DNA from: Antedon mediterranea
Lineage: Eukaryota; Animalia; Echinodermata
Assembly: GCF_964355755.1 (NCBI RefSeq)
Contig: NC_092673.1
Coordinates: forward strand, 16,340,948-16,404,947
Direction: 5' to 3'
DNA length: 64,000 nucleotides
Part shown: piece by piece, positions 1,666 through 30,996 of the stretch
How the letters are laid out: every line of letters starts with the position of its first letter
Numbering within the stretch: the first letter of the stretch is position 1
The notes under the pieces: generated by a model
Databases searched by the model: none
Seen by the model: the letters and a program-made list of their open reading frames with translations, nothing else
Told to the model about the DNA's origin: nothing
Made by a program: the position numbers and the translations under genes

Positions 1666-1773
1666 GATTGTGACACTCCATTACATTCATATCTGAGGAA
1701 AGGATATACACCTACCTTAGCAATAGTGACGTGTCTCATTCAGCATGGGGCACCAGTAGCATTGCAAAATGAG
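1666..1773 (+). CDS. Ankyrin-repeat exon A, DCDTPLHSYLRKGYTPTLAIVTCLIQHGAPVALQNE (phase 0-0)
   Basis: ttccag|GAT ... GAG|gtaaat; 108 nt; TPLH and L-x-x-GA ankyrin motifs. Confidence 0.85.
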
Positions 1774-3242
1774 GTAAATGTACAAGGATTTGCTAGTCTA
1801 ATAGGCTAACATTATATAGATCTGCTGAAGTAAACCATTTAATGAGAGAAAAAAGTAAGCACATTAACAAAAATCAAATTTGATTAAAACAAACCAAATA
1901 AAAATAGTTATATATGATTTATGATCTGATTTAAAGTGTACAGTTACCTATCATATAACATAAATCTTTAATTTTCTTAATGAACAAAAAAAATTTTTTT
2001 TTTTATATATATTCAGTTAATATTAATTAACAATTATTGACAATGGTCTAATTAATTGTAAATATGAAATAAAATGTGACAACTACTAAACAACTAAAAA
2101 TGTTTATGTTAAAAAAATTTATATAAAATCTGATTTTAATAAAAAATAATTATTAATTAATAACCTGCTCCCTCCCTTACCTTACAAAAAATGCTTCTGT
2201 CATTCTATCCAGCTAATTATAAACATAGCCTTAAACTACATCTGGAGATCCTTTTCCAACCTAGGATCTTTTTGTGCAAATAATTTGCCACAAAAGGAAG
2301 AGAAATGTAAATAACGTTTAGCCTTTAGTTAGTGGTTTCCAAAATTTAAAATGTTTGAGCAATGCAATTTTAAAAAGAAAGCTAATATGAAATTATTCTT
2401 TTCAAACTGAATGCTTTAAGAACAGTTCCGTCTCTTATCTTATGCCTTTTTTGGGAAAAAATGACATTATTAAAGTTGCTATTTAAAATTTGATACTAGT
2501 AGTGCCAACAGATGGTTCTTAAATACATGACCTTTGGTAAATAACTGAAAATTGTTTAAGTACAAAGCAAATAAATACAGATATGTTGGAATTTATGTAG
2601 TCAAATATAATTGTCATCCTGAGAATTACCTTAATTTTGTTTATTGCATGGTATTGTTCACCAAATTCCTGTCTTGGTACATTTGATGATGGGATGGTAT
2701 CAGGCTTCATGATATATGATATTATTTTCATTGAGGCAAATGGTTTAAACTAAATTTGTTATCGTTAATAACTTAACTTAATTATGATATTGGTTTCATT
2801 GGGTGTTAAAAATCAGTACTGAAAGTATGTACCAACTTTCTCTACCATTGAGTATAAATTCTAGAAGTTGCACTTAATTTACTGAAATTTCCCATTGCCT
2901 AAATTTATATATAAATTAATTTAACTGCTTATCGTATTGTTAACATCTAAACATTTGTTTGTACAATTTTATGAAATATGTATTTTATTAATGTTAAAAT
3001 TTTGTGATTGATATTGTACAGTAAGTAGATTTTAATGATTACTTACATTAAGTAATAGGCTAACAATTACTAGATCTGATCCATGGTAATATATTATATT
3101 TTGTTTTCATTTATTAATAATGATAATTAGGATTTTATCACATTATTTAGCAGTAATTGTTGTTGTTTGTATTGACAAAAAAAACAAATTTCACATAGTC
3201 TGTTGTCAGTTTATAAACTTCATGATTATCATTCCTTTCCAG

Positions 3243-3353
3243 GATGGTGAAACTCCATTACATTCATATCTGTGGAGTGAATATACTGTACCTACCTTAG
3301 AAATAGTGACGTGTCTCATTCAGCATGGGGCACCAGTAGCATTGCAAAATAAG
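3243..3353 (+). CDS. Ankyrin-repeat exon B, DGETPLHSYLWSEYTVPTLEIVTCLIQHGAPVALQNK (phase 0-0)
   Basis: ttccag|GAT ... AAG|gtaaat; 111 nt. Confidence 0.87.
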
Positions 3354-4279
3354 GTAAATGTACAGGAATTTGTTAGTGTAATAAGCTAACATTATAGATC
3401 TGCTGAAGTAAACCATTTAATGAGAGAAAAAAGTAAGCATATTAACAAATATCAAATTTTATTAAAACAAACCAAATAAAAATAATAACTAAATAGTTTA
3501 TATGATTTATGATAACTGATTTAAAGTGTACAGTTACATATAAATCTTTATTTTTCTTAATGAACAAAAAAATCTATTTTTTTTTTTATATATTCAGTTA
3601 TTAATTAACATTTATTGACAATGGTCTAATTAATTGTAAATATGAAATAAAATGCGACAACTACACTGACTAATAATAAAATAGCAAATAAAAAATGTTT
3701 ATGATGTTAAGAAAATTAATAGAATCTGATTTTATTAATTGATTAAGGAAAATGGTTTAACCTAAATTTTTTTTAAGCGTTAATATCTAATATCTAAATT
3801 AGCTTAATTATGATATTGGTTTCATTGGGTGTTAAAAATCAGTACTGAAAGTATTTACCAACTTTCTCTACCATTGAGTATAAATTCTAGAAGTTGCACT
3901 TAATTTACTGAAATTTCTCATTACCTAAATTTATATGTAAATTCATTTAACTGCTTATTGGCCTCATATTGTTAACATCTAAACATTTGTTTGTACAATT
4001 TTATGAAATATGTATTTTATTAATGTTTACATTTTGTGATTGATATTGTACAGTAAGTAGATTTTAATGATTACTTACATTAAAGTAATAGGCTAACAAT
4101 CACTAGATCTGATCCATGGTAATATATTATATTTTGTTTTCATTTATCAATAATGATAATTAGGATTTTATCACATTATTTAGCAGTAATTGTTGTTGTT
4201 TGTATTAACAAAAAACCCCAATTTCACATAATATCTGTTGTCAGTATTTATAAACTTCATGATTATCATTCCTTTCCAG

Positions 4280-4390
4280 GATGGTGAAACTCTATTACAT
4301 TCATATCTGGGGAGTAGTATACATGTACCTACCTTAGAAATAGTGACGTGTCTCATTCAGCATGGGACACCAGTAGCATTGCAAAATAAG
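4280..4390 (+). CDS. Ankyrin-repeat exon C, DGETLLHSYLGSSIHVPTLEIVTCLIQHGTPVALQNK (phase 0-0)
   Basis: ttccag|GAT ... AAG|gtaaat; 111 nt. Confidence 0.87.
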
Positions 4391-5312
4391 GTAAATGTAC
4401 AGGGATTTGCTAATGTAATAAGCTAACATTATATAGATCTGCTGAAGTAAACCATTTAATGAGAGAAAAAAGTAAGCACATTAACAAAAATCAAATTTTA
4501 TTAAAACAAACCAAATAAAAATAATAACTAAATAGTTTATATGATTTATGATAACTGATTTAAAGTGTACAGTTACATATAAATCTTTATTTTTCTTAAT
4601 GAACAAAAAAATCTATTTTTTTTTTATATATTCAGTTATTAATTAACATTTATTGACAATGGTCTAATTAATTGTAAATATGAAATAAAATGCGACAACT
4701 ACACTGACTAATAATAAAATAGCAAATAAAAAATGTTTATGATGTTAAGAAAATTAATAGAATCTGATTTTATTAATTGATTAAGGAAAATGGTTTAACC
4801 TAAATTTTTTTTAAGCGTTAATATCTAATATCTTAATAGCTCAATTATGATATTGGTTTCATTGGGTGTTAAAAATCAGTACTGAAAGTATTTACCAATT
4901 TCTCTACCATTGAGTAAAAATTCTAGAAGCTGCACTTTATTTACTGAAATTTCCCTTTACCTAAATTTATATGTAAATTCATTAAACTGCTTATTGGCCT
5001 CATATTGTTAACATCTAAACATTTGTTTGTACAATTTTATGAAATATGTATTTTATTAATGTTCAAATTTTGTGATTGATATTGTACAGTAAGTAGATTT
5101 TAATGATTACTTACATTAAGTAATAGGCTAACAATTACTAGATCTGATCCATGGTAATATATTATATTTTGTTTTCATTTATCGATAATGATAATTAGGA
5201 TTTTATCACATTATTTAGCAGTAATTGTTGTTGTTTGTATTAACAAAAAAAAAACAATTTCACATAATGTCTGTTGTCAGTATTTATAAACTTCATTATG
5301 ATTCCTTTCCAG

Positions 5313-5420
5313 GATGGTGAAACTCTATTACATTCATATCTGAGTGGATATACTGTACCTACCTTAGAAATAGTGACTTGTCTCATTCAGCATGGGGCAC
5401 CAGTAGCATTGCAAAATAAG
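5313..5420 (+). CDS. Ankyrin-repeat exon D, DGETLLHSYLSGYTVPTLEIVTCLIQHGAPVALQNK (phase 0-0)
   Basis: ttccag|GAT ... AAG|gtaaat; 108 nt. Confidence 0.87.
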
Positions 5421-6373
5421 GTAAATGTACAGGAATTTGTTAGTGTAATAAGCTAACATTATAGATCTGCTGAAGTAAACCATTTAATGAGAGAAAAAAG
5501 TAAGCATTTAACAAAAATCAAATTTGATTAAAACAAACCAAATAAAAAAATAACTAAATAGTTATATATGATTTATGATAACTGAATAAAAGTGTACAGT
5601 TACCTATTATATAACATAAATCTTTAATTTTCTTAATGAACAAAAAAATCTATTTTTTGTATATATTAATTAATTGTATATTAAGTACAAAGCAAATAAA
5701 TACAGATATGTTGGAATTTATGTAGTCAAATATAATTGTCACCCAGAGAATTACCTTAATTTTGTTTATTTCATGGTATTGTTCACCAAATTCCTGTCTT
5801 GGTACATTTGATGATGGGATGGTATCAGACTTTATGATATGATTTTCATTGAGGCAAATGGTTTAAACTAAATTTGTTATCGTTAATATCTAACTTAGCT
5901 TAATTATGATATTGGTTTCATTGGGTGTTAAAAATCAGTACTGAAAGTATGTACCAACTTTCTCTACCATTGAGTATAAATTCTAGAAGTTGCACTTAAT
6001 TTACTGAAATTTCCCATTACCTAAATTTATATGTAAATTCATTAAACTGCTTATTGGCCTCATATTGTTAACATCTAAACATTTGTTTGTACAATTTTAT
6101 GAAATATGTATTTTATTAATGTTTACATTTTGTGATTGATATTGTACAGTAAGTAGATTTTAATGATTACTTACATTAAAGTAATAGGCTAACAATCACT
6201 AGATCTGATCCATGGTAATATATTATATTTTGTTTTCATTTATCAATAATGATAATTAGGATTTTATCACATTATTTAGCAGTAATTGTTGTTGTTTATA
6301 TTAACAAAAAAAAAACAATTTCACATAATGTCTGTTGTCAGTATTTATAAACTTCATTATGATTCCTTTCCAG

Positions 6374-6481
6374 TATGGTGACACTCCATTACATTCATAT
6401 CTGAGGAGTAGATATACACCTACCTTAGAAATAGTGACTTGTCTCATTCAGCATGGGGCACCAGTAGCATTGCAAAATGAG
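6374..6481 (+). CDS. Ankyrin-repeat exon E, YGDTPLHSYLRSRYTPTLEIVTCLIQHGAPVALQNE (phase 0-0; absent from the ORF track)
   Basis: ttccag|TAT ... GAG|gtaatg; 108 nt. Confidence 0.87.
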
Positions 6482-7143
6482 GTAATGTACAGGGATTTGC
6501 TAGTGTAATAAGCTAACATTATATACATCTGATGTGGTAAACCATTCTATTTTGTTCTGGTTTACCACATTATTTAGCAGTAATTTTTACTGTATTGTCT
6601 CATATTATGGTATATCTGCAGCATTGCAAAATAGGGTAATGTAGGCTTACAAAGAATTGTCAGGACAATTTCACATTTTATTGTTATCAGTATTTATAAA
6701 CTTCAACTTCAGTATCAATTAGCCTCCATATTAATCAATAATATTACTACCTCAAAGAGTAGTATTATTTAATCAGACTTACAGATATAGAATTCTCAAG
6801 TGTTTGATTTTTTTCACATTTTTCTCTTTTTACACATAGCACATTCTAACAAGTTTGTTTTGATTTAGATATTCATTTATAAGTCAACTATTATTGTAAT
6901 GTGTTGTTGTTTTAATATTTCATTTGTATCTGGATAGTATCCAAATATTATTTTCTTTGAAAGTTTATAGTAAAACTATTTGTTGTTTTATATTATGGCT
7001 CAAACATTTCAACACATCTACCTACTGTTCCAAAGTAAACTTTTATTCAATTTGATGCGATGTGATGCGTAATTAAAGTGTGTTATATTGTATATCAATA
7101 ATTTCTCAAAAACTACTAATAACTAAACCCATTTTTTTAATAG

Positions 7144-7228
7144 GATGGAAATACACTTGTCTCTCTTTTAGAAAGTAACAGGTGGATAGAGGAGCAAAGT
7201 AAAACTGAAATTTTAAACTTCTTAGAAG
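7144..7228 (+). CDS. Ankyrin C-cap-like exon DGNTLVSLLESNRWIEEQSKTEILNFLE (phase 0-1)
   Basis: tttaatag|GAT ... GAA G|gtaagt; DGNT start continues the ankyrin register; 85 nt. Confidence 0.8.
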
Positions 7229-7649
7229 GTAAGTGAAGTTTTAATTATTGAAATTTTAGGATCAACTAGTTTCATTGCAAACGATAAAGATTTGATAGGA
7301 GGCTTTACTTTAAACTAGTTACAATAATCGAACGGGGGATATGCATTGTTAAGGAATATTTGAACTTTATTAATTGCACATAAATGTAAAATGTAGATTT
7401 TTTTTTTTAAATGTAATCTATTTTATATATAATGCTATGTACAATTGGTATTCGCATTCAAGGCAAACAATTTACGATAGGAGGAGATAAATATTGAATA
7501 TAAAAATCTAATTTTCTTGTTAAATCCCAGTTTTTGTTTCCACAATGGATGAATTTCCTTCACACATTTTAAATAATAATTCGTCTTCTTCGAGGAGCTG
7601 AATCATCGGATTTTCAGCGCGCCGTGCGTACCAGGTTACTACCGTAAAT

Positions 7650-9217: not shown

Positions 9218-9310
9218 ATTTACCAAGTACTGTTGATGAGCAATTTCTAACACAATTTCAGAAACATACAAGTGACAAACAGAAAACAAAACTTCTTAAG
9301 CCAGAGAGTG
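9218..9310 (+). CDS. Linker exon 1, DLPSTVDEQFLTQFQKHTSDKQKTKLLKPES (phase 1-1)
   Basis: tttttttag|AT ... AGT G|gtgagt; 93 nt. Confidence 0.78.
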
Positions 9311-12874: not shown

Positions 12875-12922
12875 GTGAGTTTAAGAATCGTATAAGGAGT
12901 TGTATGGTTCAATGTAACATAT

Positions 12923-15900
12923 TAGACCGGGCGCCCAGAAGATTTATTCATGTGAAAAGCCACAAAAGGTCTGATGGGCTGATTATGTAGATATATGGCC
13001 AAGATTCAATAATCAATATTGCTGCCGGGTCCTATCCTGTAAATTTACCCTGGGGACACCAAATAGGAGGGGTAAAAAATGGATTTAATCATGTGAAAAG
13101 CCACACGGATAAAAGTTGTTGGACATTGTTCCCATATGTGTATACAATGTTAAAACAGCAATGACAGCAACTTTATCCTGTAAGTTGCCCGAGACAGTAG
13201 CCCCAAGTGACCACTAAAAAATGGTGTTATTCACCACACGGCTAATTCCTTTTGATTGCAACTGTTACACATTGGGGTGCACAAAAATATTATTGACAGC
13301 AACTTTATCCTGTAAGTTGCCCCAAACAGTAGCCCTAGACAGTAGCCAAGAAATGCCCGTTGGGCTATACAAAATTTAATCACACGAAGAGCCACACGGC
13401 CAATTCCTTTTTTATTGGAACTGTTACGTCTTGGGATAGACGAAAATACTGATGACAGCAACTTTATCCTGTAAGTTTCCCCAGACAGTAGCCCCAGACA
13501 GTAGCCCAGAAATGCCCGTTGGGTCTGGGCCTACAAGATTTAATCACACGAAGAGCCACACAGTCAATTCCTTTTTTATTGGAACTATTACGTCGTGGGA
13601 TAGACAAAAATACTCATGACAGTAACTTTATCTTGTAGGTTTTCTCAGACAGTAGCCCCAGACAGTAGCCACACGGCCAATTCCCTTTTTATTGGAATTG
13701 TTATGACTTGAAATATACGAATGTATTCACGACAACACGTCGGCAGGCTCCTTAACTTCAAGTTTACCCATCAAGTTACAATTTAAATTTACCACCATGT
13801 GACACGAATACGGTTTTGTCACCTATTATTGGACCATAGTGATCATTCTGGACATCGTTTATAAGAAACTGTGCTAGAACTTCCTTAAATTCTCCATTCT
13901 TTAATAGATCTATACCTTTCTTTTGCTGTTGTTGATCCGCTCCAGTTATAATGAATGTGTTCTTGGCGTTCTACTCTGCACCTCTCTTTAATCTTTCGAC
14001 ATCTTCTATTGATTGTTCTATATATTTGTCCAGCGACATGAGAACAGAATTTCCACTGGCTGAACATACCTTAATCATGATATCTAAAACAATTTTAAAT
14101 CGTTTTCCCATTATGTAGACACATTATGACGAGGTAAAATTTCATGCAGAACAAGTCCGCCATCAAAGAGAGTTGTGTCGGTCACAGGAGTATCTTCCTT
14201 ATGTGAACCAGATTGTCTTGTTTCTAAAATCTTCGCAAAAATTGCCTTCTCTGTTTTTGTTGGAGTACCATCGAATGTGCAATAGCTAGTGGTATTTCAG
14301 TGATCGTTAGTACATACTGTAATGCAAATCTGTAGTCGTCTTTGATAACAAGTATCCAAAAGCATCACGAACACCTTCAGCTGCACCAAGAGCTTTGTTG
14401 CATTTAACGATTTCTTCTTCATGTTTGAAGCAGTACAATTGCGTACCTTTATACGCTTTACCGTCTTTAATAATCTTGTTTCGTCTGAAACACATTCTTT
14501 GTAAAATAGCTGCCGTGATAGGTATCCTCTCTGTAGTGTTCCCAGCAAATATGTACTATAGTTATGTCATTTACAGCTTTACCTGTAGCAATATTTACTA
14601 ATGTGGTTGGTGAATCAGTGGGGAATGGATTGCATGTACTATTTAGCTTAATGAGAAACTTGTCTACATCATTATTATCTCTCTCAATCCTCCGTCGACG
14701 TAACTGGTTAGCTGGTGTTTCACCGGGTTGAATTCCACTCATGGACTTCATTTCAGACACAGGAATACTCCGTTGAGTGAGATTTACGCAACAACGACGA
14801 AATGCACTCTCTGAGTTCGCAAAAGCTGTATTTCCAGTTGCCGATGACGCAGCATCTCTGTTAACAGTTTGCTCTAATGTAAGATCTACGTTTTTTCGTT
14901 CGTCGTGTTGAAAAGGCACCGGCTTTTAAAACATCTAATGCTGCAGAGTCCAAATTCTTCATTTTTTTCAATAAAAAGTGACCCCCAACGAGCATAATTT
15001 GGCCGGTTCAGATTTCAACCAAATACGGTAGTACATTGATGTACAGAATCACATCATTCGTTATTACTGCACGCTGGAATTGACGATACAAGCGGTTGAT
15101 AAGGTACACGTAAATAGCCCAATATGCGGCAGTGTTGCCAAATTCACCCTTTATAGTACGATGTAAAAATTCTTCATATTCATTAGGAAGTATTAAGAAT
15201 TCGTCACTGTCGGCAATTTGATTAGGCGCATTAATGTCGTCCGTTGGTATTGCTCGAACACTTTGTAGCAAAGTATCATCTTTCATATAGTAGGTACCCA
15301 GGAATCGCTTAAACAATTCTTTCTCAAAGGCCATAGCAGTGATTTGATGTATTCTGGTGCATCGGTTGTATAATTTACCATGGATGAAACCATTATCAAT
15401 CAATCAATCAAATCAATCAATCAAATCAATCAAAGTAACATTTATTTCTCTTCTTTTCTTTCATAGAATATATAATTACAGTAAATATGATTAAAATATG
15501 AGGGGCAAGATTCCAAAAAAGCGAAGCTTGTATAAGGCAGCCCATAAAAACTGAAACAAAAAACAGGACAACACAGGAACCGGAAACAGGACAAAAACTG
15601 TAATGAAGACTTTTAGTTTCAGGGTACCGAAAAGACTAAATAAAGTCTTAAGTGACCTCTCTGCCAGTATACCCGATTCAGTTAGAATATATTCGATCCC
15701 AGAATCAGAAATGTATGTTCCAACCGCTCCAAAAAATGCCACTTCGATATGAAAGTGAAAAAGTGAGTGAGTGATGAAAGTGAGTAAAATTACAAGTCTA
15801 TCAAAAGCTTTAAGTGCCACGTCACTGGATGATACAGCATTTTTGTCTCATCTGCAACTTTACGAGATCGAATCATTGTCTCTTGCACAACATCATTTCT

Positions 15901-17989
15901 TGTTGTTGGTTATAAAATTTGGTCCATGTATGCAATGGCAGTTAAAGGAAATGGATCGTTAACGAACGTTGAGTATAAGCCATTGAACAGAGGAAGTTTT
16001 CAATTAGATGATAAGATTAGCCAAACTAAAGAGAATAACTTGCATCGGATTCACTTATTTTGTTCCTGGTCTTTTTCTTCAAATTTAAACTTGGCAAGTT
16101 TTAGATTTGAATAAAATAGTGGTACTATTTTCTCTGCTCCGTCAAATTTCCGCCTAGGTCTTCCAGTGACCAAACTGACCGGCAGTCCTTCCATCTCAGC
16201 GGTTTGCCCCTGAAGGACATTCTGATACGCAATGCGAACTGTAACATTGAGACTATTTTTACCATCCAGGGTTTCCATGTTTAAATCGTAATTGTCCCAC
16301 GCAGTACCTGTAAAAACAAAACATATCAATATATACACATAATGTACTGTGCAATTTGTCACCTTGATTATTGATACTAATTACTAATTTCATTTATATT
16401 TTTCATTAAATTAAAAATATTTATATTACCTGTAGCCAATAGAGGTTGCAACAATAAGCCAGTGGGTGTCTCCAATTCACTCAAAGAACATGTGTATGCT
16501 ATTTCGGTCTCCAGACGTTTACATTCATCATAGCTTATTGTATGACTGAGGCGATTTAAAATAGTGATTGCTCCCTTAGATCCAAGCATGGACGTTAAAC
16601 CATGGAGAAATAACTTATTTCTCCATGGTTAAACCAAGACCTAACGATGTATTCTTCCAGGGCCTGACAGTACCTCGTGAAGTTGCAAAAACAATATCCG
16701 GTGACAGTGATTGCGTTTTTCTCATAATTTTTCAGATAATCCACATACAAATGTTTGATAAAACAATTTAGTCAGAGGTGGTAGTGGTGAACATTGTTTC
16801 ATTGTGTGAATAGATTTCGGTGAAGGAATTTTTCTTTTTTTCCATTTTCAAGATTTCTGACCGAAGCGCTAAACCGCACATTGAATTGTTTCATCATTTT
16901 CATTGAGGTCTTTTAACCGTGATTTAGCTTTATTGACGCTCATGTCTTCAGGGTATAAAAAGTTTCCAGTCTTGTTTGAGTCTTTGCTAATATTTAATCT
17001 ATCTCTAAATGTGGTCATTAATTTAGTAACTAATGGCTGACAAGCAAAAGAACGAATATCATCGTCAGTACCTCCGACTGCTTTATACTGTTCTTTGTAC
17101 AAATCCATGATTTTAAAGGCATATTTTGGTATACGTTTACAAATTATTTCATTTTCAACGTACCTCACCAGCCCATTGTATGCTTCTTCGTGTGTTTTTC
17201 TGTTTCTACTTATTACTACTTTCTGGGGCTACTGTCTGGGGCAACTTACAGGATAATTTTGCTGTCATGTGTATTTTTGTCTATCCCAAGACGTAACAGT
17301 TCCAATAAAAAAGGAATTGGCCTTGTGGCTCTTCGTGTGATTAAATCTTGTAGGCCCGGACCTAATGGGCATTTCTGGGCTACTGGCTGGGGCTACTGTC
17401 TGGGGCGACTTACAGGATAAAGTTGCTGTCATGAGTATTTTTGTCTATCCCAAGACGTAACAGTTCCAATAAAAAAGGAATTGGCCGTGTGGCTCTTCGT
17501 GTGATTAAATGTTGTATGGTCCAACGGGCATTTCTGGGCTACTGTCTAGGGCTACTGTTTGGAGCAACTTACAGGATAAAGTTGCTGTCAATGATATTTT
17601 TGTGCACCCCAATGTGTAACAATCAACAATCAATCAACAGTTGCTATGCAAAAGGAATTAGCCGTGTGGCTCTTGACATGAATAACACCATTTTTTAGTG
17701 GTCACTTGGGGCTACTGTCTCGGGCAACTTACAGGATAAAGTTGCTGTCATTGCTGTTTTAACATTGTATACACATATGGGAACAATGTCCAACAACTTT
17801 TATCCGTGTGGCTTTTCACATGATTAAATCCATTTTTTACCCCTCCTATTTGGTTTTCCCAGGGTAAATTTACAGGATAGGACCCGGCAGCAATATTGAT
17901 TATTGAATCTTGGCCATATATCTACATAATCAGCCCATCAGACCTTTTGTGGCTTTTGACATGAATAAATCTTCTGGGCGCCCGGTCTA
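12923..17989 (-). mobile_element. Academ-type DNA transposon 1 (degenerate, about 750-bp TIRs)
   Basis: TAGACCGGGCGCCCAGAAG...CTTCTGGGCGCCCGGTCTA termini; 3-bp TSD TAT; internally repetitive long TIRs. Confidence 0.85.
13760..17200 (-). pseudogene. Fragmented Academ transposase (N-terminal/catalytic part), with one intron at 16308-16429
   Basis: Ordered motifs LNRLSHTISY, WDNYDLNMETLDGK, FHIE..F, GKLYNRCTRIH, DLTLEQTVN across frameshifted ORFs; a GT-AG intron joins LLATG to TAWDN. Confidence 0.75.
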
Positions 17990-19557
17990 TATTGTGATTA
18001 AAATGGTATTTCAGTATAGTAGAGTAGAACTAATGAAAAAAAGGGGCCAACCTCAAAAAAATTGCAACAAAAGGTTTTTCAACGGATTTTGGTAGTATTG
18101 GGTCTACTAAACAACAGAAAAAAAGTCTCAAGAATTTGCGACCCCCGGAAAGTGGTTTTTTTCAAGATGGCCGCCAAAATAGATAAAAAGTGAAAATGGC
18201 CATACCTCCTAAACTACTTGGTCTATTGATATAATTTTGGTACCAACATACTCAGAACATACATATTTATATTCGCTATAATAGAAAATTTTGGCCAAAA
18301 TTGACCGGAAATACCATTTCTGACAATTTGACCTTTGACCTTGATATGTTGTATCTTGGTAACAACTGACCGTAGGGAAACAAATGATGGCTCAAATTGT
18401 TCAGAATGTACATATTTACATTTATTGTAATGAGACATTTTGTCAAAAAATGGTTGGAAGTAAAGGTTATTGACCTTTAACTTTATCTATGTAGAATTTC
18501 CATATCTCGGCAACTATGTGTGGTAGAGATTTAAAATTGGGCTCTAAATACTGAGAAAATACTTATTTATATTTACTCTAATGAAACAGTTTGACAAAAA
18601 ATGACTAGAAACGACATGATTTGACCATTGACCTTGATGCTATATTTTGATAATGACTGACTGAGATACACTATTTATGGCTCAATTTGTTCAGAATATA
18701 ATTATTTTTATTTCGTATAATGGTCTAATCTACCCATGGAATTAAGAGCTTTCCTGGGAATCAAGTAAACTGTAATATTTATAAAGACTTTTAGAATATG
18801 AGTTCAAGTTCAAATTGTTCAGAACATACTGTATACATTCTTAATAATAATAGTGTATAAAAAACCCGAAAAGTAAACAAAAACAAATAATAATAATTTT
18901 AAATTTCTAATTACGGTATAGCAGCAGTTGATTGGATATTGTGCATGTATTTAGTACGGCATCCTAAACAACTGTTCCAACTTCGTCTTCATCGTCATCA
19001 ATCTCTCTATCTACGTTGTTCCATTCTTCTAGTTGACACACTCCACAAACTGAAGTACATGCCAATCCATAGCGTCTACAACTGCAACATACAGTTTTAC
19101 ATCCAGTAGTACAGTTACAAAGGATGATTTTCAAAGTTCTTCTGGAGCAGCAGTTTCAATCGTCATTATTGGCACAAATGTTTTATTAAAAACTTCCCCG
19201 ACTTGGCAGCATCCATGGTATTATCTTTCTTTATCCATTGCATGATTTGATAGTATACTCTAAGACTGTGACATTTTGTAGCAGATGAGGTTGGTGGTAG
19301 TAGTTGTTGAGGTTTGATAAATTATTTACCTTCAGCAACTTTCTTATTAAACAGCTTGCATCTGTAGCTATTTAGGAAATCCAGTGACTTGGCTCCAAAA
19401 AGAATAGACATGGCCTTTAATCCAAACTCCTCGATAGTTTGAAGTTTCTGATGCGGTTGAGTGAAAATATCGGCACACATCAGTGTCATATTCTAGGTTA
19501 CTTTCTATCAATTTATTGGTTTATTTGCCTTCCTAAAGATGTCTTTGGCTTCGAAGA

Positions 19558-20794
19558 GTGAGGGTGGAAACGAACTTAGTTCATATTTCATTACATCGTC
19601 CAGAGAGATTTGTCCTAACTGAATTTGATGGAAAGAAAGAAGAATTCCTGTCAAGGCATGAGAACAAACACAAATTTATCAACATGCTTTCATATGAGCT
19701 ACAGAAAAAAGAATGTCCTGTACGACATGCAGCCAACGAGTTATGGTTATGATGCTTGGCTACCACTCCAAGGGTCCTGAGTTCAAGTTCCGTCACATGT
19801 CAGGATTTTTTCTAAGGACCAAATTACTCCACTCCCAAAGACTTGTAATAAGACTTTGTTTTGTAGAGCATCTTGTGTATATGCTTGTCTTGATCAGCAA
19901 TAGCTGCATGGATCACCCACATTAAATATGGTTTAAAAAAAACAAAAAAAACAATGCCGATGTTGACATTGCTCTGGCAACAGTTGAAGTCTCTGAACAT
20001 AATACAGTAACTTTGATTGGAGAAGACACAGACTTTACTGGTACTTTTACTGTATCATGTAAATACAACAAACCGAGAAGTGTACTTCAGATTAGACAAA
20101 GGAAAAGATGGGCCTACTAGAGTGATTAATGTAACCAGTTTGAAATCTGTTTTAGGATATAAAATGTGAACTGCATTACCCATAGTGCATGCATTCACTG
20201 GTTGTGATTCGACGTCTAGGATTTTCGGAATCGGCAAGAAAGCGGCATTTAATAAATTGATTGAAAGTAACCCAGAATATGACATGTGTGCCGATATTTT
20301 CACTCAACCGCATCAGAAACTTTAAACTATCGAGGAGTTTGGACTGAAGGACATGTCTATTCTTTTTGGAGCCAAGTCACTGGATTCCCTGAATAGCTAC
20401 AGATGCAAGCTGTTTAATAAAAAAAGTTGTTGAGGGTAAATCATTTATCAAACCTAGCCTCAACAACTACCACCAACGTCATCTGCTACAGAATGTCAGT
20501 CAAATCATGCAATGGCTATAGAAAGATAATACCATGGATGCTACCAAGTGGGGATGGAAAGTTTGTAATAAAACATTTGTGCCAATAATGACGATGGAAA
20601 CTGCTGCTCCAGAAGAACTTTTGAAAATCATCCATTGTAACTGTACTACTGGATGTAAAACTGTATGTTGCAGTTGTAGACGCTATGGATTGGCATGTAC
20701 TTCAGTTTGTGGAGTGTGTCAACTTGAAGAATGGAACAACGTAGATAGAAAGATTGATGACGATGATGAAGACGAAGTTGGAACAGTTGTTTAA
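19558..20794 (+). pseudogene. Academ XPG/FEN1-like nuclease plus Cys-rich C-terminus remnant
   Basis: ADVDIA, GEDTD, HAFTGCDSTSRIFGIGKK, LPPT, WGW, APEELLKIIHCNC..C..C.C..CT..C motifs with stops and frameshifts. Confidence 0.75.
19739..19952 (+). mobile_element. tRNA-derived SINE-like insertion in the Academ coding remnant
   Basis: B-box-like gagttcaagt head and A-rich tail; interrupts HAAN|ADVDIA. Confidence 0.55.
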
Positions 20795-20821
20795 GATGCC
20801 GTACTAAATACATGCACACTA

Positions 20822-22140
20822 TCTATATATAAATTTACGTAAGGGCAAAATTCGGTAAATCGCGCCTTACTTTTAGAATTTTTACTCAATGGTATATAAA
20901 GTTGGTTCGTACTTTCGGTACTGATTTTAACCACCTGATTTAACCCTATTTACTAATTAAATTAAGTTAGATAATTAGTTATTGACGATTAAAACGAATT
21001 TAGGTTCAACGATTTGCCCCAAAGAGGGGTGTTTTCCGATCGTGGTATACACTGCCTAATGGATGTCCATCTTGAAAAATACCCGCCACAAAAATTCGAG
21101 GAGGCTTCGCATTTTCCTATCTCCTCCTACGATAATTGTTTTTAATAGCTGAAAACCGGTTGAACAGCTAGAGTACAGCATCATAATGTTGAAGACAGGC
21201 CGATTTTCTTTAAAAAATACTATTTTGATAGATTTAATATACGATTCTACAAATGTATTGATTTGCGATGAATGGAACATCCCAATCTCTCAGTCTGCCA
21301 GAGTTTAACACAAGTAGGTAAATTTATGAGCCCTTGGTTTAACACATACGGTAGGTAAATTGGGCCCTTTGAGAATATACTTGCAATACTTCGACAATAC
21401 TGTAAATACCTATTAACTATTGTTTGTCCTCATTTGAATCGAACATTTCTTACTGTGAATGTTCGTACTGTTAGATGTAATATAAAAATATATACAAATA
21501 AACTTTATTACTGAGATTGTGGATACTACTGTTAGATATATAAACACATTATTATATACAAATAAACTTTATACTGACAGTTCCTTCTCAACGTTTGTAT
21601 TAATTAATAATTACCAAAAATATAAACGTCGTAGTGGTGTATCGTGTACTTTAATATTTCAATCGATTATGACAGTGACAGTTTTAACAAAGTATTAAAT
21701 CGCAAATGTTTTACTGTATTTAGATGTAGGCCTATATTATTTATAGGCCTATAAAACATGAAAGAAATATTTCGTTACTGAGTGGATAAAGAATATATTT
21801 AAAAATTGTTCTTCTTTGTACCTATCCGCTTTCCCATCCCTCAACCCTAATGTTACATACAAAACACAAATTGGGTTTCTTTAAAAGAGTCCAAATCAAA
21901 AATTTGGACTCATTTTGTGATAAGTTTCTCCTTCGGAAGTAATTCCCAGGGTGCTAATTTTAGTTGACTACATAAATCATCGTGTCTATTTATTCGTTTC
22001 TGTAAACGACAATGTATTATAGTACTGCGGTACGTACATTTGAAATCGCCAGTTTTGTTACGCTGAAATTACTGTGTATTCGAGAACCATCTGTGGGTAC
22101 GACCTAGATGGTACGCGAGCGAAGCGAGCGTACCATCTAG
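20822..22140 (+). mobile_element. Non-autonomous Helitron
   Basis: 5' TC, 3' CTAG, inserted between A and T without TSD (the empty site is visible in the inverted arm near 18940); terminal hairpin. Confidence 0.9.
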
Positions 22141-23151
22141 TCTAATCAATTGCTGCTATACCGTAATTAGAAATTTAAAAGTTATAATTATATTCTGAAC
22201 AAATTGAGCCATAAATGGTGTATCTCAGTCAGTCATTATCGAAATATAGCATATCAAGGTCAATGGTCAAACATGTCGTTTCTGGTCATTTTTTGTCAAA
22301 CTGTTTCATTAGAGTAAATATAAATAAGTATATTCTCAGTATTTAGAGCCCAATTTTAAATCTCTACCACACATAGTTGCCGAGATATGGAAATTCTACA
22401 TAGATAAAGGTTAAAGGTCAATAACCTTTACTTCTAACCATTTTTTGACAAAATGTCTCATTACAATAAATGTAAATATGTACATTCTGAACAATTTGAG
22501 CCATCATTTGTTTCCCTACGGTCAGTTGTTGCCCAGATACAACATATCAAGGTCAAAGGTCAAATTGTCAGAAATGGTATTTCCGGTCAGTTTTGGCCAA
22601 AATGTTCTATTATAGCGAATATAAATATGTATGTTCTGAGTATGTTGGTACCAAAATTATATCAATAGACCAAGTAGTTTAGGAGGTATGGCCATTTTCA
22701 CTTTTTATCTATTTTGGCGGCCATCTTGAAAAAAACCACTTTCCGGGGGTCGAAATTCTTGAGACTTTTTTTCTGTTGTTTAGTACACCTAATACTACCA
22801 AAATCCGTTGAAAAACCTTTTGTTGCAATTTTTTGAGGTGAAACCTTATTTCTACTCTACTAGTAGTGGACTTGTAGTAATATAAGAATTTCATTCATTT
22901 AGTTTATCATATATTATATAATATACAAATTCTTATAATTGCGTGCAACTTCAATAGCTTAAATTGTCCTTGGCTGTATTGCTATGATTATTAGTTTCTC
23001 ACTCATGGTTCAAAATTTGGCACAAAACATTTTCAATGAGTTGAAAGATTAAGAGAATTATTTAATTGGTCAGATGTTTTGTCTTATTCTGACGTAATTG
23101 CACTGTATACTCAGTTCAATGAGAACACTTTGCGAACAAATTTAAAAGTAT

Positions 23152-23726: not shown

Positions 23727-24262
23727 ATCGAATGGAGTTAATTGTGGACTCTACAGGTGGAACTCTTCACCTTAAGGATGAAGGCATAAAGTTACAGATA
23801 CAACCTGGAGCAATAGAAGAAGGAAAGACAGTTAAAATATCACTAGAAAATATTTTGGAGGAAACAGACATGCCTGTACTTCATCCACTTGAATCAATAA
23901 TATCACCTATTGTTAAATGTGGACCAGAAGGCACCATCTTCAACAAGCCCTGTTTACTGTCATTTCCACACAATGCTGTAAATGAAGAGTTTTGGGAATT
24001 CTCTCTACTTTTTAAAGAATGCTTTCAAGATAAATGGAAAAACCTCACATTAGAAATTGATGAAAAGGACATGAATTTTACTTTAAACAAGGGCCGATGT
24101 TTTATAAATTTAAATCATTTCTGTTTTTCTGCAATTAAAGGTCGAGTAAGAAATATCTTTTATGCTAAAAAAAGTATAAAGTTGGGCGTTTTTGGAAAGG
24201 CGCTTGTAAATGAAAATGAATATCGACTTCGAGTAACATTTTTTAAGCCAGGAAAACAAAAG
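23727..24262 (+). CDS. ZU5 domain exon plus start of UPA (phase 1-0)
   Basis: ctgcag|AT ... AAG|gtaatt; VDSTGGTL, GIKLQIQPGAI, ISPIVKCGPEGTIFNKPCLLSFPH and LNHFC motifs typical of ZU5. Confidence 0.9.
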
Positions 24263-24908
24263 GTAATTGTTAATTTTTTAGTAAACTGTATTTGAATTCC
24301 AATTTCATGGAACTTTTATTTTGTAATCTTTTATGCACAAAAATGTTCCAAATCATTTATTAGATGATCGTTGCTTTTATAACTGATAAATTATTTTATT
24401 AACCTGCATAGGTATTTATATATATATGCATAGACAATTTAAGCAGAAGGTTTCCATTATTTTCATGAAAAGGGAAATAAATACACAGAAAATCTCATTT
24501 CTTTATTTTTTTCCCAGTTTTTTCACCTTTGTGTAATTTGTGTACAAATATATTTTTAAATATGTAAATATGCTTATATGATAGAAATATTTGTAAAAAC
24601 AGCTCAAATAAAATGTTTCTTATAATATATTTACTGTAGGGGCCTACCGGTGACATTGATTTCTTCAATAGAGTTGAAATTTTTTATTAAACTTTCTTGG
24701 GTTATCCTCAGTTCATTCAGTTAATATTGTTTTCTTGTACCTTTTCTTTTTTTTTCTAAATCTGTATCTGTACGTAAAATTGAATGAACTGAAATAAAAT
24801 GAATGAAATAAATAGAATAAATGAAGAGCCATGAGGTAAAAGAGATAAAATTGCCTCTGTTTGTGGTATAACCAGGAAAGAGACTTACTTTCCATGTATG
24901 AATTTCAG

Positions 24909-25043
24909 GAGGTTAATGAAGAACAAGCATACCAGGGCGACAAACTTTTAGAACCAGGTACAGTACGGTCTTTGTATAAAGACTTGGAAATAAGAGTTGA
25001 AATACCAAATCAGAAATGGAGAGTAGTGGATAAAAGAGTAAAA
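24909..25043 (+). CDS. UPA-like exon, EVNEEQAYQGDKLLEPG...WRVVDKRVK (phase 0-0)
   Basis: tttcag|GAG ... AAA|gtaagc; 135 nt; E...G.KLLE pattern as in UPA segments following ZU5. Confidence 0.8.
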
Positions 25044-25348
25044 GTAAGCAATTTGTTTTATTTATGAAATTATTTTCTTTTAAAAATTCACAAATCTGTG
25101 CAAATGCATTATTGTATATTATAGGTAGTCTGCTGATTATTGCTTGTTGAAACAGTAATTTGAGTAGCACACACTAGAATGAGAAAAAGTCTAAATTCCA
25201 CAGTGTTGCAATGTTTACAATTTTTGTAAGGCTCCATCCTTATATTGTTCACAAGAATTTCAACTCATCAATTGAATGTGTAGGCTGATGGCAACATAAC
25301 TTGTATTAAATTGTTTTTTATGTATTAAATGATTTAGTTAAAGAATGT

Positions 25349-26201
25349 CAGGGTCGTAGCCAGGGGGGATTTTATGGTTCGGGCAAAACCCCACTTTACA
25401 GCGAACCCCCTAACTGCGAACCCTACCCCAGACATGCCCACTACCTCACCCTCATCTCTGAAAATCCTCCAAATACGTGCCCCACAGTACAAAAGGTTAT
25501 TGGTAAATCAAAAAATTTGTAAACTCTTTCGTGAATAACTCGTACTTTCGTTCCTGTATGAGCATACGTTGAGCGATACCTGTCTGTAAATTTCTAAGAG
25601 TTGCAAATGAATTGCCGATTTTCACCTGAAAATAAATACAAATTTTTGATCCTTGGATGGACAGTAACATGATATTGACTCGTGTATCGTACTCATACAG
25701 TGAGCTGGGTCGATTCGTTTAGGTCACTGGCAGTCAATATGCATATGTATATAGCCTTCCGACGTACATCAAAAAATGGAATGCTGCGGTTACCTACAGT
25801 ATTTATGTGTGGCCAAGAAGTATAGTGTATCATCATTATAGAGGATTATAGTGAATATTAATATTTTACACTAAAATATCTATGGTATCATGTACTGTAG
25901 ATCCGATCCGATCCGATTATTTTTGTCTAGACCACCAACCGATACGTAGGCCTACTTAACTGTATCAATACCACCTATTTACATTGATATATTTAATTTC
26001 CTCAACAAATTGCTGTAAATAAATATAGATAGAGCTATAATAAGCATTGAATTTGTATTCTCACCCAAAGCATACTTTTTTCTGGGTTTCACGTACGTTT
26101 GCATTGAACTTGAACGCAAAACAAAATACCGAGTGAATGAGCTGTGACCCAAATAGTTAGTCTCCGAACTCCCCTCTTGACAGATCCTGGCTATGGCCCT
26201 G
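25349..26201. mobile_element. MITE with CAGGG termini and 5-bp TSD
   Basis: cagggtcgtagccagg ... cctggctatggccctg; AATGT on both flanks. Confidence 0.7.
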
Positions 26202-26584
26202 AATGTACTGTAGATTTTAAACAATTTGGGGTGCATACATATTTTGTTCACAAACTATGACGACGTAATTTGTGAGCCACCTGATTTGTCAGTGTTTGTA
26301 ATGTTAAAGTTGGCCTTGGTTTAACTTTAACGATTACAATTGTTAAATTGTTTTAATTGATACAATTTCAATGATCTGAATTACGCAAAGCGGCAATTAC
26401 CCTTTTCCTGTTAAGTTAAGTGATATTTATTTTAAGGCAAATTTATATAGGTAATTACTATGACTTTGGTCTATTTTGCTTACTGGTAATAAGCACCCGA
26501 AATACTTATTACATGGAGGTATACATGGTCCAAAGAACTGCTGTGAGCTAAACATACATATCCAATATATACTTTTTTTCCTAG

Positions 26585-26726
26585 ATTATCCTTGCTGAAT
26601 ACCTATGGTGTGAAAGACCATCAACAAAATTTTATTTAGAAAGAGTTAATTCATCAACAAATGATCTAAGGGCAACCTTATCACTAAAACAAGATTCAAA
26701 TGATATTCCTGAAGTGGAAGTGGATT
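26585..26726 (+). CDS. UPA-like C-terminal exon, IILAEYLWCERPSTKFYLERVNSSTNDLRATLSLKQDSNDIPEVEVD (phase 0-1)
   Basis: ttttttcctag|ATT ... GAT T|gtaagt; 142 nt, open. Confidence 0.8.
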
Positions 26727-26886
26727 GTAAGTATTTAAATGTTGTATAATTTAAGTAGTAAATTAAATCTATATATAAATAACACATTTATAATTCATAA
26801 AGATAGCAATTAAATCTCTAATCTTGTAACCACAAAGAATCTATTGTTTATCTATTATAAATAATTATATGTCTTATTTGTTACAG

Positions 26887-26910
26887 GTGATATCAGGTCT
26901 TCAATCGCAA
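26887..26910 (+). CDS. 24-nt micro-exon (phase 1-1)
   Basis: tttgttacag|GT GAT ATC AGG TCT TCA ATC GCA A|gtatgt. Confidence 0.6.
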
Positions 26911-27515
26911 GTATGTCATATTTATTATGTTGATTTTCAGTAGTAAACTGTAGCATTTACTTTTGTTTCTATGAACCCTTTTAATAAAGTGTCTATTTAT
27001 AATTTCTTTATGAAAACGGTATTTGTACAGAAGAGCCACTATTAAAGAGACACTTTTGTTTCCTTAATAGGGGTGTCCTCTTATTAGGCAGTGGTGGCAC
27101 CCGAGAGGCATCGGTTGACCAGATGGGGAGAAAAATGTTTTTCCTAATAGAGTATTGTTTTTACCCTATTGAGTGTGCCCAATCAAGGACTAAAACTAAC
27201 CTTACTGTAAAGTATAATATCGCCGTGATGGCCCAGCCAATGAATGCTAGCTTCGCACCTATGACCCACCATACCCTCCTCTGGGCGTTTGGCAAATCCT
27301 GGCACCACCACTAATAAGGGATTTCTTTTATATTATGGTATCATAAAGTAGGGGGTCTACTATATCAATGAATATTGAGTTGTTGAAAAGCATTATTGTT
27401 TTAGTAGAAATTCTATTTAACATGTGGTCTTGGCCTGTCATAATATGTTTCTTAATTACAACAAAATATGTGTTTTTTCTATTGAAACATTTATTGTATA
27501 CTGTATTTGTTACAG

Positions 27516-27545
27516 GAAATGTTGAACCACCCGTAACCAACCCAG
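27516..27545 (+). CDS. 30-nt micro-exon NVEPPVTNP (phase 1-1)
   Basis: tttgttacag|GA AAT ... CCA G|gtataa. Confidence 0.6.
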
Positions 27546-27984
27546 GTATAATATATTTATCATTCCAATTAAGTTAATTTAGCATTCAATTTGTATGATA
27601 CAAATACAAAATCATACAGTACCATCCTGAAAACATTTGTACTTAACTCGTAGTATCCATGGAAAAAAAATGTTGTTCCGTTAGTGGTTCATGAACTATT
27701 TAGCAGTTAATTCCTGGTAAAACTCGTACATCAATAAAAAAAAAGTGTAGAAACAATGCAAGGATTATTTAAATCGCTATACTCCTGCTTATTCATATAA
27801 ACATTTTCTGAGATGAGTTATCTTATACATTCATGTTTGGACAAAAATGGCAAAATTAAGCGAGATAATACACATATTATATCTGGTGGCAAGTCCACAC
27901 CTTCTATTGTTTTGCTCGGATGTAATTAAAAAAATTGAACTACAGTTTTAAAAACCAAAATGTTTACCATTTCTTTAAATAGTA

Positions 27985-28423
27985 CCGTAAATCTTCTAAT
28001 TGTAACCCTGGGTTATTATTCTTTGATTGTTTTTTATGGTGGGTTACTATTAGAAGAGAGGTTACTATTAGAGTAGTGGGTTACTATTACTAATCTTAAA
28101 TTAGGCACCTGAAAGTAGTAACCCACCCCAACTTTTCCGGTCAGCAAATCATAGCAAAATAATAAAACAGTACGAATAAACAAATTTGTTTGAACTCTAA
28201 CTTTATTTTATAAACTCAAAAACACTCTCCACACTCCCGAGATCAACATGCATTATCTCCTTATTTTCAAAATACTACTGCATCATAAACGACCAGTCTT
28301 CATAAATGTAATTTTGTCAATAGTTTTTGTGACTCTAATATTAACCCCCATGGGTTACTATTAGAGTAGTGGGTTATTATTATAGATTGACTTACAAGTG
28401 GGTTACTATTAGAAGATTTACGG
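27985..28423. mobile_element. Tc1/mariner (pogo/Tigger-like) MITE
   Basis: TA|CCGTAAATCTTCTAAT ... ATTAGAAGATTTACGG|TA; internal gggttactatta repeats. Confidence 0.8.
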
Positions 28424-28495
28424 TAATAGCTCAGATACATATATCTTGTATGTGTCAATAGGAATATAATACATTTTTCAACATTTTTTTTCCAG

Positions 28496-29020
28496 CAAAT
28501 TTCAATGTCTTGCAAGAAAAGTTCAGAAAGTTAAAACATGATCTTGGCTTAGTCTATGTTGGTGAAAGATACCTCTTGCCAAGATGTTGTCTCTTTGATG
28601 AAATAGATTTAGAGACCCTTGCTGATCCAAATTGCACAGCAAATGATCTATTTAACAACCTCCATGACAAAGATGACATCTCACCTGCTGATATTAATAT
28701 CTTGTCGGAGATTGCTGATTTGTCACAGCTTAAAGATGCTGAAAATCTTATAAATCTGTATGTGATAGAAAATAAGATTTCAAAAACCGATAAACATACA
28801 CTATCCACATATAGGAAACGATTATGTAAGGCATTGAAACAATTTGACCCAAATAAGTTAAAAGATGTAATTGCTTTCTATGGATTGAGGCCATTAAGAA
28901 ATAGCATAGAAACCATTTGGGATTTAGTGTTTCACTTGGAGAGCAATGGAAAATTAATAAATGAATCAGAAAGAAAGATTTTTGCTGATCTGCTTGGACC
29001 AATTGCAAAGAATATACTTG
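28496..29020 (+). CDS. Tandem death-effector-domain (DED-DED)-like exon (phase 1-1)
   Basis: ttttttccag|CA ... CTT G|gtatgt; 525 nt; DLFNNLHDKDDISPADINIL, LSTYRKRL and IWDLVFHLESNGKL match by eye the DED pattern of caspase-8/cFLIP prodomains. Confidence 0.8.
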
Positions 29021-29515
29021 GTATGTATGTTGTATATATATATATATATTATTACACCGGGCGGGTTGGAATTTATTTCTATGCCTGTTGTGTTTATATT
29101 ATTATTATATTATATATTTTTCAAGAATACAATTATGGCCCGTTTCTGCTGTGAAACAGAATCAGGACAAATTGCAAATAACCTTTTAAATGATGTTTTC
29201 AAAATAAGGGTTAATAACACCCAATTGGTTCTTTGTTAGAATGCCATTAGCCAATTTTTTCAAAATACTGTAGCATCTTGAACATTTGACTGCTTGAGCA
29301 TTTTTGGAAGCACAAACTTGCAGATATAAAGATATATATTTTCAAATAAACAGTTATTCAGTGTTATACAGCAGAAATAGGTATTACATGAACAATATGA
29401 TTGCCATACTTATTCAAATAAATGCCACCCCCTTCAATTTTTTCCTCAAATAAACGCCCCGTCACATGCATATACACACAATATTGAATTATAACTCATT
29501 TTTTTCTATTTTTAG

Positions 29516-29538
29516 CAGAATTCATTGACTTCCCATGA
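29516..29538 (+). CDS. Candidate short terminal exon (AEFIDFP-stop), NAGNAG acceptor
   Basis: Long pyrimidine tract ttttttctatttttagcag; in frame with the DED exon; aataaa at about 29648. Confidence 0.5.
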
Positions 29539-30214
29539 TCTACAATTGACCAAGCATTTTTATAGAATTCTTGATATTAATTGTGTTGTATTTTTTCATA
29601 TTTAGGGAGAATTAATTTGATTATACATGTTACCATATTACACCCCGAATAAATGCCTCTAAATCTTATTAAACTTCACAATTACATACTGATATTAGGA
29701 ACAGGAAGGAATTCATTTTTACCCCAACCCCCACCCATCCTGGCATCAAAGATATTGTATTCAAGATCCTACTTACTGTATAGTAATGCTGCATCAAGAT
29801 ATATTGTAATATTTCAACCACACCATTTGAAGTAAAAATATGTTTATTGTATAATAATTACAAGCTGATACCAATCGTACTATCTTTGACCTACCTGAAA
29901 CCTGAATATATAACATAAAGATAGGCAAGAATCGCCAAAAGTATTTTTCAATATATTGTGGTAAATCCCCATAAGACAGATATTCATAAACATAACTAAT
30001 ATGCATTTAATATATCACTGGCACTGGTATATTTTTATTCAATTTAAGAAATACATACAAATACAGTAGGCCTACATCTAAATATATAAAATCACTGAAT
30101 CATTAAATTTAGCAGCAGGAAAAAAAACTGGTGAACTGTTGGTCAGGTATGAATAAACAACTCAATTGTTTTCTCGCAATTTGTAATTCTTAATGATATT
30201 CATTGTTATTTCAG

Positions 30215-30245
30215 ATCCATACCAACAACAACACAACAACGACAG
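30215..30245 (+). CDS. Small exon DPYQQQHNND (phase 1-2)
   Basis: ttatttcag|AT ... GAC AG|gtatgc. Confidence 0.7.
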
Positions 30246-30598
30246 GTATGCAAGTGTTTTATTAATATTTTGTTTATGTAATGAAACAATGCTATTAATT
30301 AATAGTACTAATTAATTACTAATTGCTTTCAATCAGTGCGTTCACTCAGCATGATTTTGACAGTCACTACTGTAGTATTAATGACATTTGTAGTTATTTA
30401 TCGCAATTAGTAGTACTGATTAATGAGAAGAAGCTCATAAAATATCGTAAGTCATCAATATCATTAAAATGCTGCTGTTGACCTGCAATTTTATTTAAAA
30501 TCCAGAATCTGTCACTGTATATGTAACAAACTTAATTCAATAATTAATGCCTATATAAATAAGAGTTGTCATTATGTGTACAAATGTTCTTTTTACAG

Positions 30599-30633
30599 TA
30601 GCTTCATCAAAAGGATATATACATATTTGAAAG
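30599..30633 (+). CDS. Small exon SSFIKRIYTYLK (phase 2-1)
   Basis: ttctttttacag|T AGC ... AAA G|gtatta; phases match both neighbours. Confidence 0.7.
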
Positions 30634-30922
30634 GTATTACAATTTTTTTCTCTATTAAATCAAAGTGTTTTTTTTTTTCTATTGAAAGACTAAAAGAATA
30701 AAAAATATATTTTCTTCACCAATAAATAGCTAACAAATAGCTAACTATAGATGCTTTTGGTCCTCATTCCTTACAAAATAAAGCAATAAAATAAAATACC
30801 ATTTTAATAATGTAGATATTAACAAATCATAATGGAACTTGATATTCTTGAGATATCTTTTAAGTATTTAAAAATAAAAACAAAGTTGAATATTTATCAA
30901 AACATTTTTCTCTTGATTTCAG

Positions 30923-30996
30923 ATCACTGGTGGATGATTCCAGTTTGTATTATTTTAATTGCAGTCTTTGTAAAATTTGTATATGGACTAGTATAG
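30923..30996 (+). CDS. Terminal exon encoding a C-terminal transmembrane anchor, DHWWMIPVCIILIAVFVKFVYGLV-stop
   Basis: gatttcag|AT CAC TGG TGG ... GTA TAG; about 20 hydrophobic residues immediately before the stop. Confidence 0.75.

Follow-up and report, generated by a model that had tools for sequence, protein, structure and literature searches.

The crinoid Antedon mediterranea carries on contig NC_092673.1 (assembly GCF_964355755.1) what is probably a single gene joining a variable array of ankyrin repeats (ANK) to a ZU5-UPA module, a tandem death effector domain (DED) and a hydrophobic tail. The stretch of 64,000 nucleotides analysed here (positions 16,340,948 to 16,404,947 of the forward strand), termed the window, is AT-rich DNA of animal type, and within it a chain of 17 exons with AG/GT ends runs from 1666 to 30996 on the + strand. 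The chain reads as 2334 nt encoding 777 amino acids with one stop, which is terminal, and reproduces exactly what a preliminary description of the same DNA had proposed; the variable ANK array, the ZU5 and UPA domains, the tandem DED and the membrane tail named there were likewise recovered, as described below. The 2334-nt form uses the acceptors 24909 and 30599, and alternative acceptors at 24876 and 30602 give a 2364-nt form whose frame is open as well. The exon junctions were deduced solely from the DNA and from gene models. From Met255 on, the last 523 residues are identical to the A. mediterranea RefSeq protein XP_071948739.1, annotated as “UNC5C-like protein” and here labelled P0002 (fetched proteins carry P00xx or P01xx labels, and the paralogue models are RefSeq predictions). 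The start Met of P0002 lies within exon 8, so that this model lacks exons 1-7 and the ankyrin repeats. The chain is not a product of chance, since each of exons 1-8 has its best tblastn match to an annotated paralogue at 73-88%. Four sequencing runs of one sample (X1-X4), which are DNA because they cover introns, agree without a mismatch with the pieces listed from 24009 to 31341. The assembly may itself have been built from these reads, and the runs are not independent evidence. A fifth run (X5), guessed to be RNA, covers intronic and inserted-element stretches as well, and among the 15 of its 93 rows listed no joint falls at any exon boundary, which speaks neither for nor against expression.

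The chain opens with five ANK exons carrying one repeat each, the first of phase 0-0 at 1666..1773 (Pfam Ank E 4.8e-4), followed by 3243..3353 (E 1.1e-4), 4280..4390 and 5313..5420 (both placed by alignment) and 6374..6481 (E 5.5e-5). These exons are recent tandem duplicates in units of about 1-1.5 kb, and the introns between the units differ by about 2-3%. Behind helix 1, a stretch of 5-6 residues is different in each of the five repeats, and helix 2 is nearly fixed. Among the four full units, which are not independent of each other, the loop differs at 9 of 87 nt plus indels when gaps are placed freely, or at 34 of 93 when only codon-size gaps are allowed, compared with 20 of 558 in the framework and 39 of 1656 in the flanking introns; the loop thus varies more than either. 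Every loop indel is frame-preserving, and all five exons retain their frame and splice sites despite the indels. A Fisher test on the loop columns (11/15 versus 12/304, p 2e-11) was set aside as dependent on gap placement and on non-independent units. A short ANK exon remnant, a 3′ end with its donor, lies at 6617-6635 (+).

The same loop is variable in genes on three chromosome-scale contigs. When 26 repeats of the family were gathered by pattern from the window and seven paralogues, a procedure that missed one window repeat and some others, they held 23 distinct loops of 4-9 residues, with entropy maxima at repeat positions 3, 5, 10, 13 and 14. The peaks at 3, 5, 10 and 13 coincide with randomised positions of a designed ankyrin library, whose binding positions are 2, 3, 5, 10, 13 and 33 (PMC4308713). 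This overlap alone is no proof of selection, because library positions were chosen where natural repeats vary. In the structure model of the paralogue P0010 (predicted local distance difference test, pLDDT, 90.2), which has the fold of a designed ankyrin repeat protein, the variable stretch covers the final part of helix 1 together with the loop between the helices, and this loop would, as modelled, lie on the ankyrin binding face.

A C-capping repeat exon (7144..7228, phase 0-1) follows the array and is common to the ANK-Roc protein P0012 (86% to P0012 76-103). Next comes a linker exon, L1 (9218..9310, phase 1-1), which continues into Roc in P0012 and into a second linker, L2, and ZU5 in P0003. 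L2 (12797..12874), which contains the RefSeq start Met, is a duplicate of L1 together with its intron flanks. The intron behind it, intron 8, holds two adjacent elements within 12923..22863, with no strand assigned (about 12923-17989 and 18018-22863). Their terminal inverted repeats measure 311 nt at 99% and 349 nt at 98% identity and their decayed open reading frames (ORFs) have no Pfam match; within the second lies a nested inverted pair (18935-19480/20284-20823), which carries a Cys-rich ORF. A contig without the 12924-22861 insertion is present in all four DNA runs, with an X1 depth of 838 against 141-155 for unique pieces, a depth that gives no copy number; other copies or alleles therefore have an L2-ZU5 intron of about 0.9 kb.

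The exon at 23727..24262 (phase 1-0) encodes ZU5 (Pfam E 9.8e-22, 77.5 bits) and the start of UPA, which continues in exons 24909..25043, where the in-frame acceptor 24876 is the alternative, and 26585..26726 (phase 0-1, 100% to P0002). P0002 matches Pfam UPA over positions 1-138 of 140 with E 6.5e-5 and 23.1 bits, under the curated cut-off of 27. Its best solved sequence match, the UNC5B cytoplasmic supramodule 3g5b (E 2.9e-15), runs through UPA, and a structure search of the Atlas returned UNC5, UNC5CL and SH3BP4 modules in rows that name UPA. At the end of ZU5 lies a His-Phe-Cys (HFC) motif of self-cleavage type (24116-24124, +), aligned with QLG of the non-cleaving UNC5B. Cleavage takes place at HF/S in PIDD and at SF/S in CARD8 and NLRP1, where Ser, Thr or Cys can act as the nucleophile (PMC3210808). 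Of 113 aligned ZU5 rows, 67 carry HF followed by one of these three residues (36 Thr, 19 Ser, 12 Cys), and 22 are gapped. The membrane-bound UNC5CL keeps self-cleavage, which canonical UNC5 does not (PMC10084454), and UPA lowers the threshold of death-fold assembly in NLRP1 and CARD8 (PMC7794386). By its motif the ZU5-UPA of the window groups with self-cleaving ZU5 proteins, cleavage itself being predicted.

Two linker micro-exons present in P0002 (26887..26910, 24 nt; 27516..27545, 30 nt) lead to the tandem DED, encoded by a single phase 1-1 exon at 28496..29020. Its match to Pfam DED is weak (E 1.3e-3) and a DED-alignment profile found no death-fold chain among PDB sequences. The structure model of this exon (pLDDT 96.9) does resolve into death-fold domains: in VIA the first seven rows all belong to tandem DEDs, those of caspase-8, cFLIP and viral FLIPs, which align over 154-163 residues at Z 14.5-12.2, the best being caspase-8 (Z 14.5, root-mean-square deviation 2.9, 157 aligned), and single PYD, death domain (DD) and CARD rows rank below them (CARD Z <=7.3). 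The top Foldseek rows are tandem DEDs as well, with TM about 0.7 and an E of 3e-3 that falls short of 0.001. Sequence identity to the tandem DEDs of caspase-8 and cFLIP is 16-18%. In related proteins the DED pair behaves as a promiscuous module: a scan of P0012 and of 56 of the 150 matches listed, with species looked up for ten, placed it on NACHT-LRR, Roc-COR, URGCP-GTPase, RING-NHL, kinase, PARP14-like and ubiquitin proteins as well; examples are P0014, P0026, P0020, P0042, P0060 and P0075 (Roc, URGCP GTPase, RING-NHL, PARP14-like, NACHT-LRR, kinase), and P0014 has four DED-pair copies ahead of a Roc. This spread of partners matches the pattern described for death-fold immune families that have expanded in sessile marine animals (PMC8195603).

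Behind the DED pair stand a 31-nt tail micro-exon (30215..30245, phase 1-2) and an exon with a basic amphipathic stretch (30599..30633, phase 2-1), both present in P0002, and the last coding exon (30923..30996). The latter encodes a single hydrophobic segment at the C-terminus, the most hydrophobic 19-mer of the whole chain (Kyte-Doolittle 2.59 over 19 residues), which is predicted to be a tail anchor. The tails of P0007, P0016 and P0158 have two hydrophobic segments, and the window copy (30923-31070) ends after the first. A candidate alternative last exon at 29516..29538 (+), with a strong acceptor, seven codons and a stop, could if used give a soluble form without the membrane tail.

The preliminary description was right about the domains and overlooked that the closest kin of the ANK block and of the DED pair are ROCO (Roc-COR) proteins of Antedon itself. 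Queried with the ANK exons, the protein search returned three models, all from Antedon and on the 36.19-Mb contig that also carries P0002. P0010 and P0011 are ANK-only models with an N-cap, and P0012 joins ANK-ANK-cap-L1 to a Roc GTPase; the ANK, cap and L1 of the window are 79% to this protein. Searching for Roc-COR returned 22 proteins, all from crinoids and split evenly between Antedon (11) and Anneissia japonica (11), and several have the order ANK-Roc-COR(-DED); the RefSeq models of the ANK-Roc-COR-DED type are P0158-P0160, P0164, P0165, P0171, P0176 and P0177. The DED pairs of the Roc-COR-DED protein P0164 and of the paralogue P0003 each share 61% identity with that of the window, and a careful 28-row tree, which leaves out 53 of 81 rows, mostly more distant ones, unites all three in one clade at 100/100; the clade was recovered too in a quick tree of the 81 rows. 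A tblastn search with the 177 fetched proteins found no Roc or COR remnant in the window, including between L1 and ZU5, and P0002 has none. P0004 holds both switches (Roc-COR-DED-ZU5-UPA-DED), and other paralogues have the orders (ZU5-UPA)2-DED, DED-ZU5-UPA, UPA-DED-DED and ZU5-UPA-tail. With several paralogues recovered, the gene belongs to a multi-copy family and is no single-copy housekeeping gene. The ANK block ends in phase 1, and the ZU5-UPA block and the DED exon are both 1-1, so that the modules are swappable without frameshift. Judged from sequence, the gene looks like a ROCO receptor chassis in which the Roc-COR GTPase switch was replaced by ZU5-UPA via phase-1 exon shuffling.

We consider it probable that the ANK exons are spliced to the ZU5 exons in one transcript. 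Overlapping models cover the junction types in turn, namely ANK-ANK-cap-L1 in P0012, L1-L2-ZU5-UPA-DED in P0003 and L2-ZU5 to the tail in P0002. The accession numbers of the ANK-only models lie 3 and 6 away from those of P0002 and P0003, which would fit split annotations. Building on such a transcript, we propose, with somewhat less than even confidence, that the locus forms one gene within a cluster of crinoid receptors of immune type, that variable ANK repeats are spliced in it to a ZU5-UPA predicted to be self-cleaving, a tandem DED and a predicted membrane tail, and that its product would work by cleavage and release. A constitutive cut would fall between Phe399 and Cys400, and both halves would remain associated and inhibited. 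A foreign or altered-self ligand on the ANK face, or the loss of the ANK-ZU5 half, would free the membrane-anchored UPA-DED-DED, and the freed half could then oligomerise and recruit a DED-bearing caspase or adaptor, like the UPA-CARD of NLRP1 and CARD8.

A number of observations tell against this proposal, and three other explanations draw on them. Concerning the joint, no transcript joining ANK to ZU5 was seen, no start codon for the chain was found in the window, its first exon being of the internal phase-0 type, and the paralogue models that support it are predictions of unknown support. A broken ANK exon copy at 1486..1536 (+), with an intact acceptor and the 5′ half of a repeat, no donor and an in-frame stop, offers a competing acceptor, and together with the elements that add 9.9 kb to intron 8 and broken DED exons at 36-38 kb it indicates decay nearby. 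None of the 177 fetched proteins, a biased set scored with family-specific profiles, has both ANK and ZU5; eight of them carry ZU5 with a DED pair and four ANK with a DED pair. The window could instead contain two neighbouring units, namely an ANK block that an ANK-ROCO gene left behind, orphaned or in decay, and next to it a gene of its own for the 523-residue ZU5-UPA-DED-DED-tail protein of RefSeq, an arrangement that we hold to be unlikely. It would account for the Met in exon 8 at which P0002 begins, but the acceptor of that exon is of the internal type and homologous to the L1 acceptor, and L1-L2-ZU5 occurs in P0003 as well. The ANK-only models P0010 and P0011 and the lack of ANK with ZU5 among the fetched proteins suit it too, whereas the ANK block has neither another 3′ end nor a Roc remnant in the window. 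Broken copies do surround the locus, yet frame and splice sites are kept in all five ANK exons despite the indels.

Further points of this kind concern function. The four ANK units compared are related by duplication, and in their framework seven of eight segregating sites are non-synonymous, close to the 76% that neutrality would give, so that this comparison does not support purifying selection on the young array. The fused gene could be a young, non-functional product of birth-and-death shuffling, whether transcribed or silent, with loop variation reflecting local mutability or conversion, which we regard as rather improbable. The recent duplication of the ANK units, with introns about 2-3% apart, the framework without a purifying signal, the inserted elements and pseudo-exons, and the single hydrophobic tail segment where paralogues have two would all agree with such an origin; 2334 nt in 17 exons free of stop or frameshift would not, nor would a DED pair that has diverged by 39% from its nearest relatives and still models at pLDDT 96.9, nor loop indels that stay in frame in a loop variable on three chromosome-scale contigs.

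Two further points weigh against the proposal: Cys is the rarest of the three candidate nucleophiles in the ZU5 family, and in helix 2 of DED1 the Leu and Phe that prevail in the family are replaced by Pro and Cys. The protein might instead be an uncleaved scaffold or decoy, UNC5/ankyrin- or cFLIP-like, that tethers ANK-bound cargo to the membrane or dampens ROCO or NOD-like receptor (NLR) DED signalling, and this we think quite unlikely. Its closest solved sequence is indeed that of non-cleaving UNC5B, but UNC5B has QLG where the window protein has HFC; the top fold matches include cFLIP and viral FLIP and the DED1 helix 2 residues are atypical, but a variable loop on the binding face suits a sensor better than a fixed scaffold. 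The gene can be set beside several known systems.

Ankyrins have the order ANK-ZU5-ZU5-UPA-DD with a long fixed ANK array, and share with the window gene the overall succession of ankyrin repeats, ZU5-UPA and death fold. The order with a DED pair was not found described in the literature searched (few subscription journals, no supplementary tables), whereas that of ANK, ZU5-UPA and death fold was already known from ankyrins. The window gene differs from them in having one ZU5, a DED pair, a hypervariable array with one repeat per exon and a membrane tail, and its match to ankyrin ZU5 is at E 0.016 or worse. PIDD1, NLRP1 and CARD8 resemble it in combining a repeat sensor, ZU5-UPA with an HF/S-type motif (here HF/C) and a death-fold output (PMC3210808, PMC7794386); here ANK takes the place of leucine-rich repeats (LRR) or NACHT and the tandem DED that of DD or CARD, a C-terminal membrane tail is added, and P0002 has no match to Pfam FIIND or CARD. 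UNC5B and UNC5CL provide the best sequence match (3g5b) and the best Atlas structure matches, and UNC5CL is both membrane-bound and self-cleaving (PMC10084454), but in the UNC5 proteins the membrane segment precedes ZU5 and the output is a DD, whereas the only hydrophobic segment here is C-terminal, after the DED pair; UNC5B also lacks the cleavage motif. The candidate LRR-ROCO immune receptors of Ectocarpus encode each repeat in its own exon, have broken repeat exons within introns, evolve by birth and death and diversify their repeats (PMC3341825); they are an analogy only, being LRR proteins of a brown alga with no ZU5 or DED. From caspase-8 and cFLIP, which share the tandem DED fold, P0002 differs in having no caspase domain and its DED pair at the C-terminus. 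The crinoid ANK-Roc-COR-DED proteins have homologous ANK repeats, cap and linker and a sister DED pair, with Roc-COR where the window gene has ZU5-UPA. The order is that of ankyrins and the logic that of PIDD1 and CARD8, and the new elements are the DED pair, the tail anchor and the ROCO-derived variable array.

Innate receptors of echinoderms are mostly discussed in terms of Toll-like receptors, NLRs and scavenger receptors. It is a possible but doubtful further step to see in the crinoid proteins an undescribed modular receptor system, in which exon-shuffled ANK arrays with a variable loop like that of antibodies and tandem-DED outputs are linked by an interchangeable switch, Roc-COR or self-cleaving ZU5-UPA, and the window gene is a self-cleaving, membrane-anchored invertebrate counterpart of NLRP1 and CARD8 with DED signalling. 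If expressed as modelled, the gene would add to the known receptors a class that senses through variable ankyrin repeats, and would be a natural case of a GTPase switch exchanged for a self-cleaving one on the same chassis. It would bear on whether animal ROCO proteins are immune receptors, and on whether release of the NLRP1/CARD8 type drives DED signalling from the membrane.

Downstream of the gene, 36029-36330, 37362-37424 and 37833-38279 (+) are the remains of a second gene with two DED pairs, like P0018 and P0019, to which it is 72-81% and 67-77% identical; its first exon has an internal deletion and a frameshift. A fragment of a reverse transcriptase of the type without long terminal repeats (Pfam RVT_1 E 7.9e-7) lies at 43209-44129 (-). 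The tandem repeat at 1-648, with a 71-bp unit, was considered as an ANK exon array and is not one. It belongs to a set of satellite arrays at 1-648, 39251-42269, 45273-47478, 50621-52175, 52992-54735, 54894-56302 and 59776-60135, with units of 71, 62, 97, 69, 61 and 69 bp, the 69-bp unit yielding long spurious ORFs.

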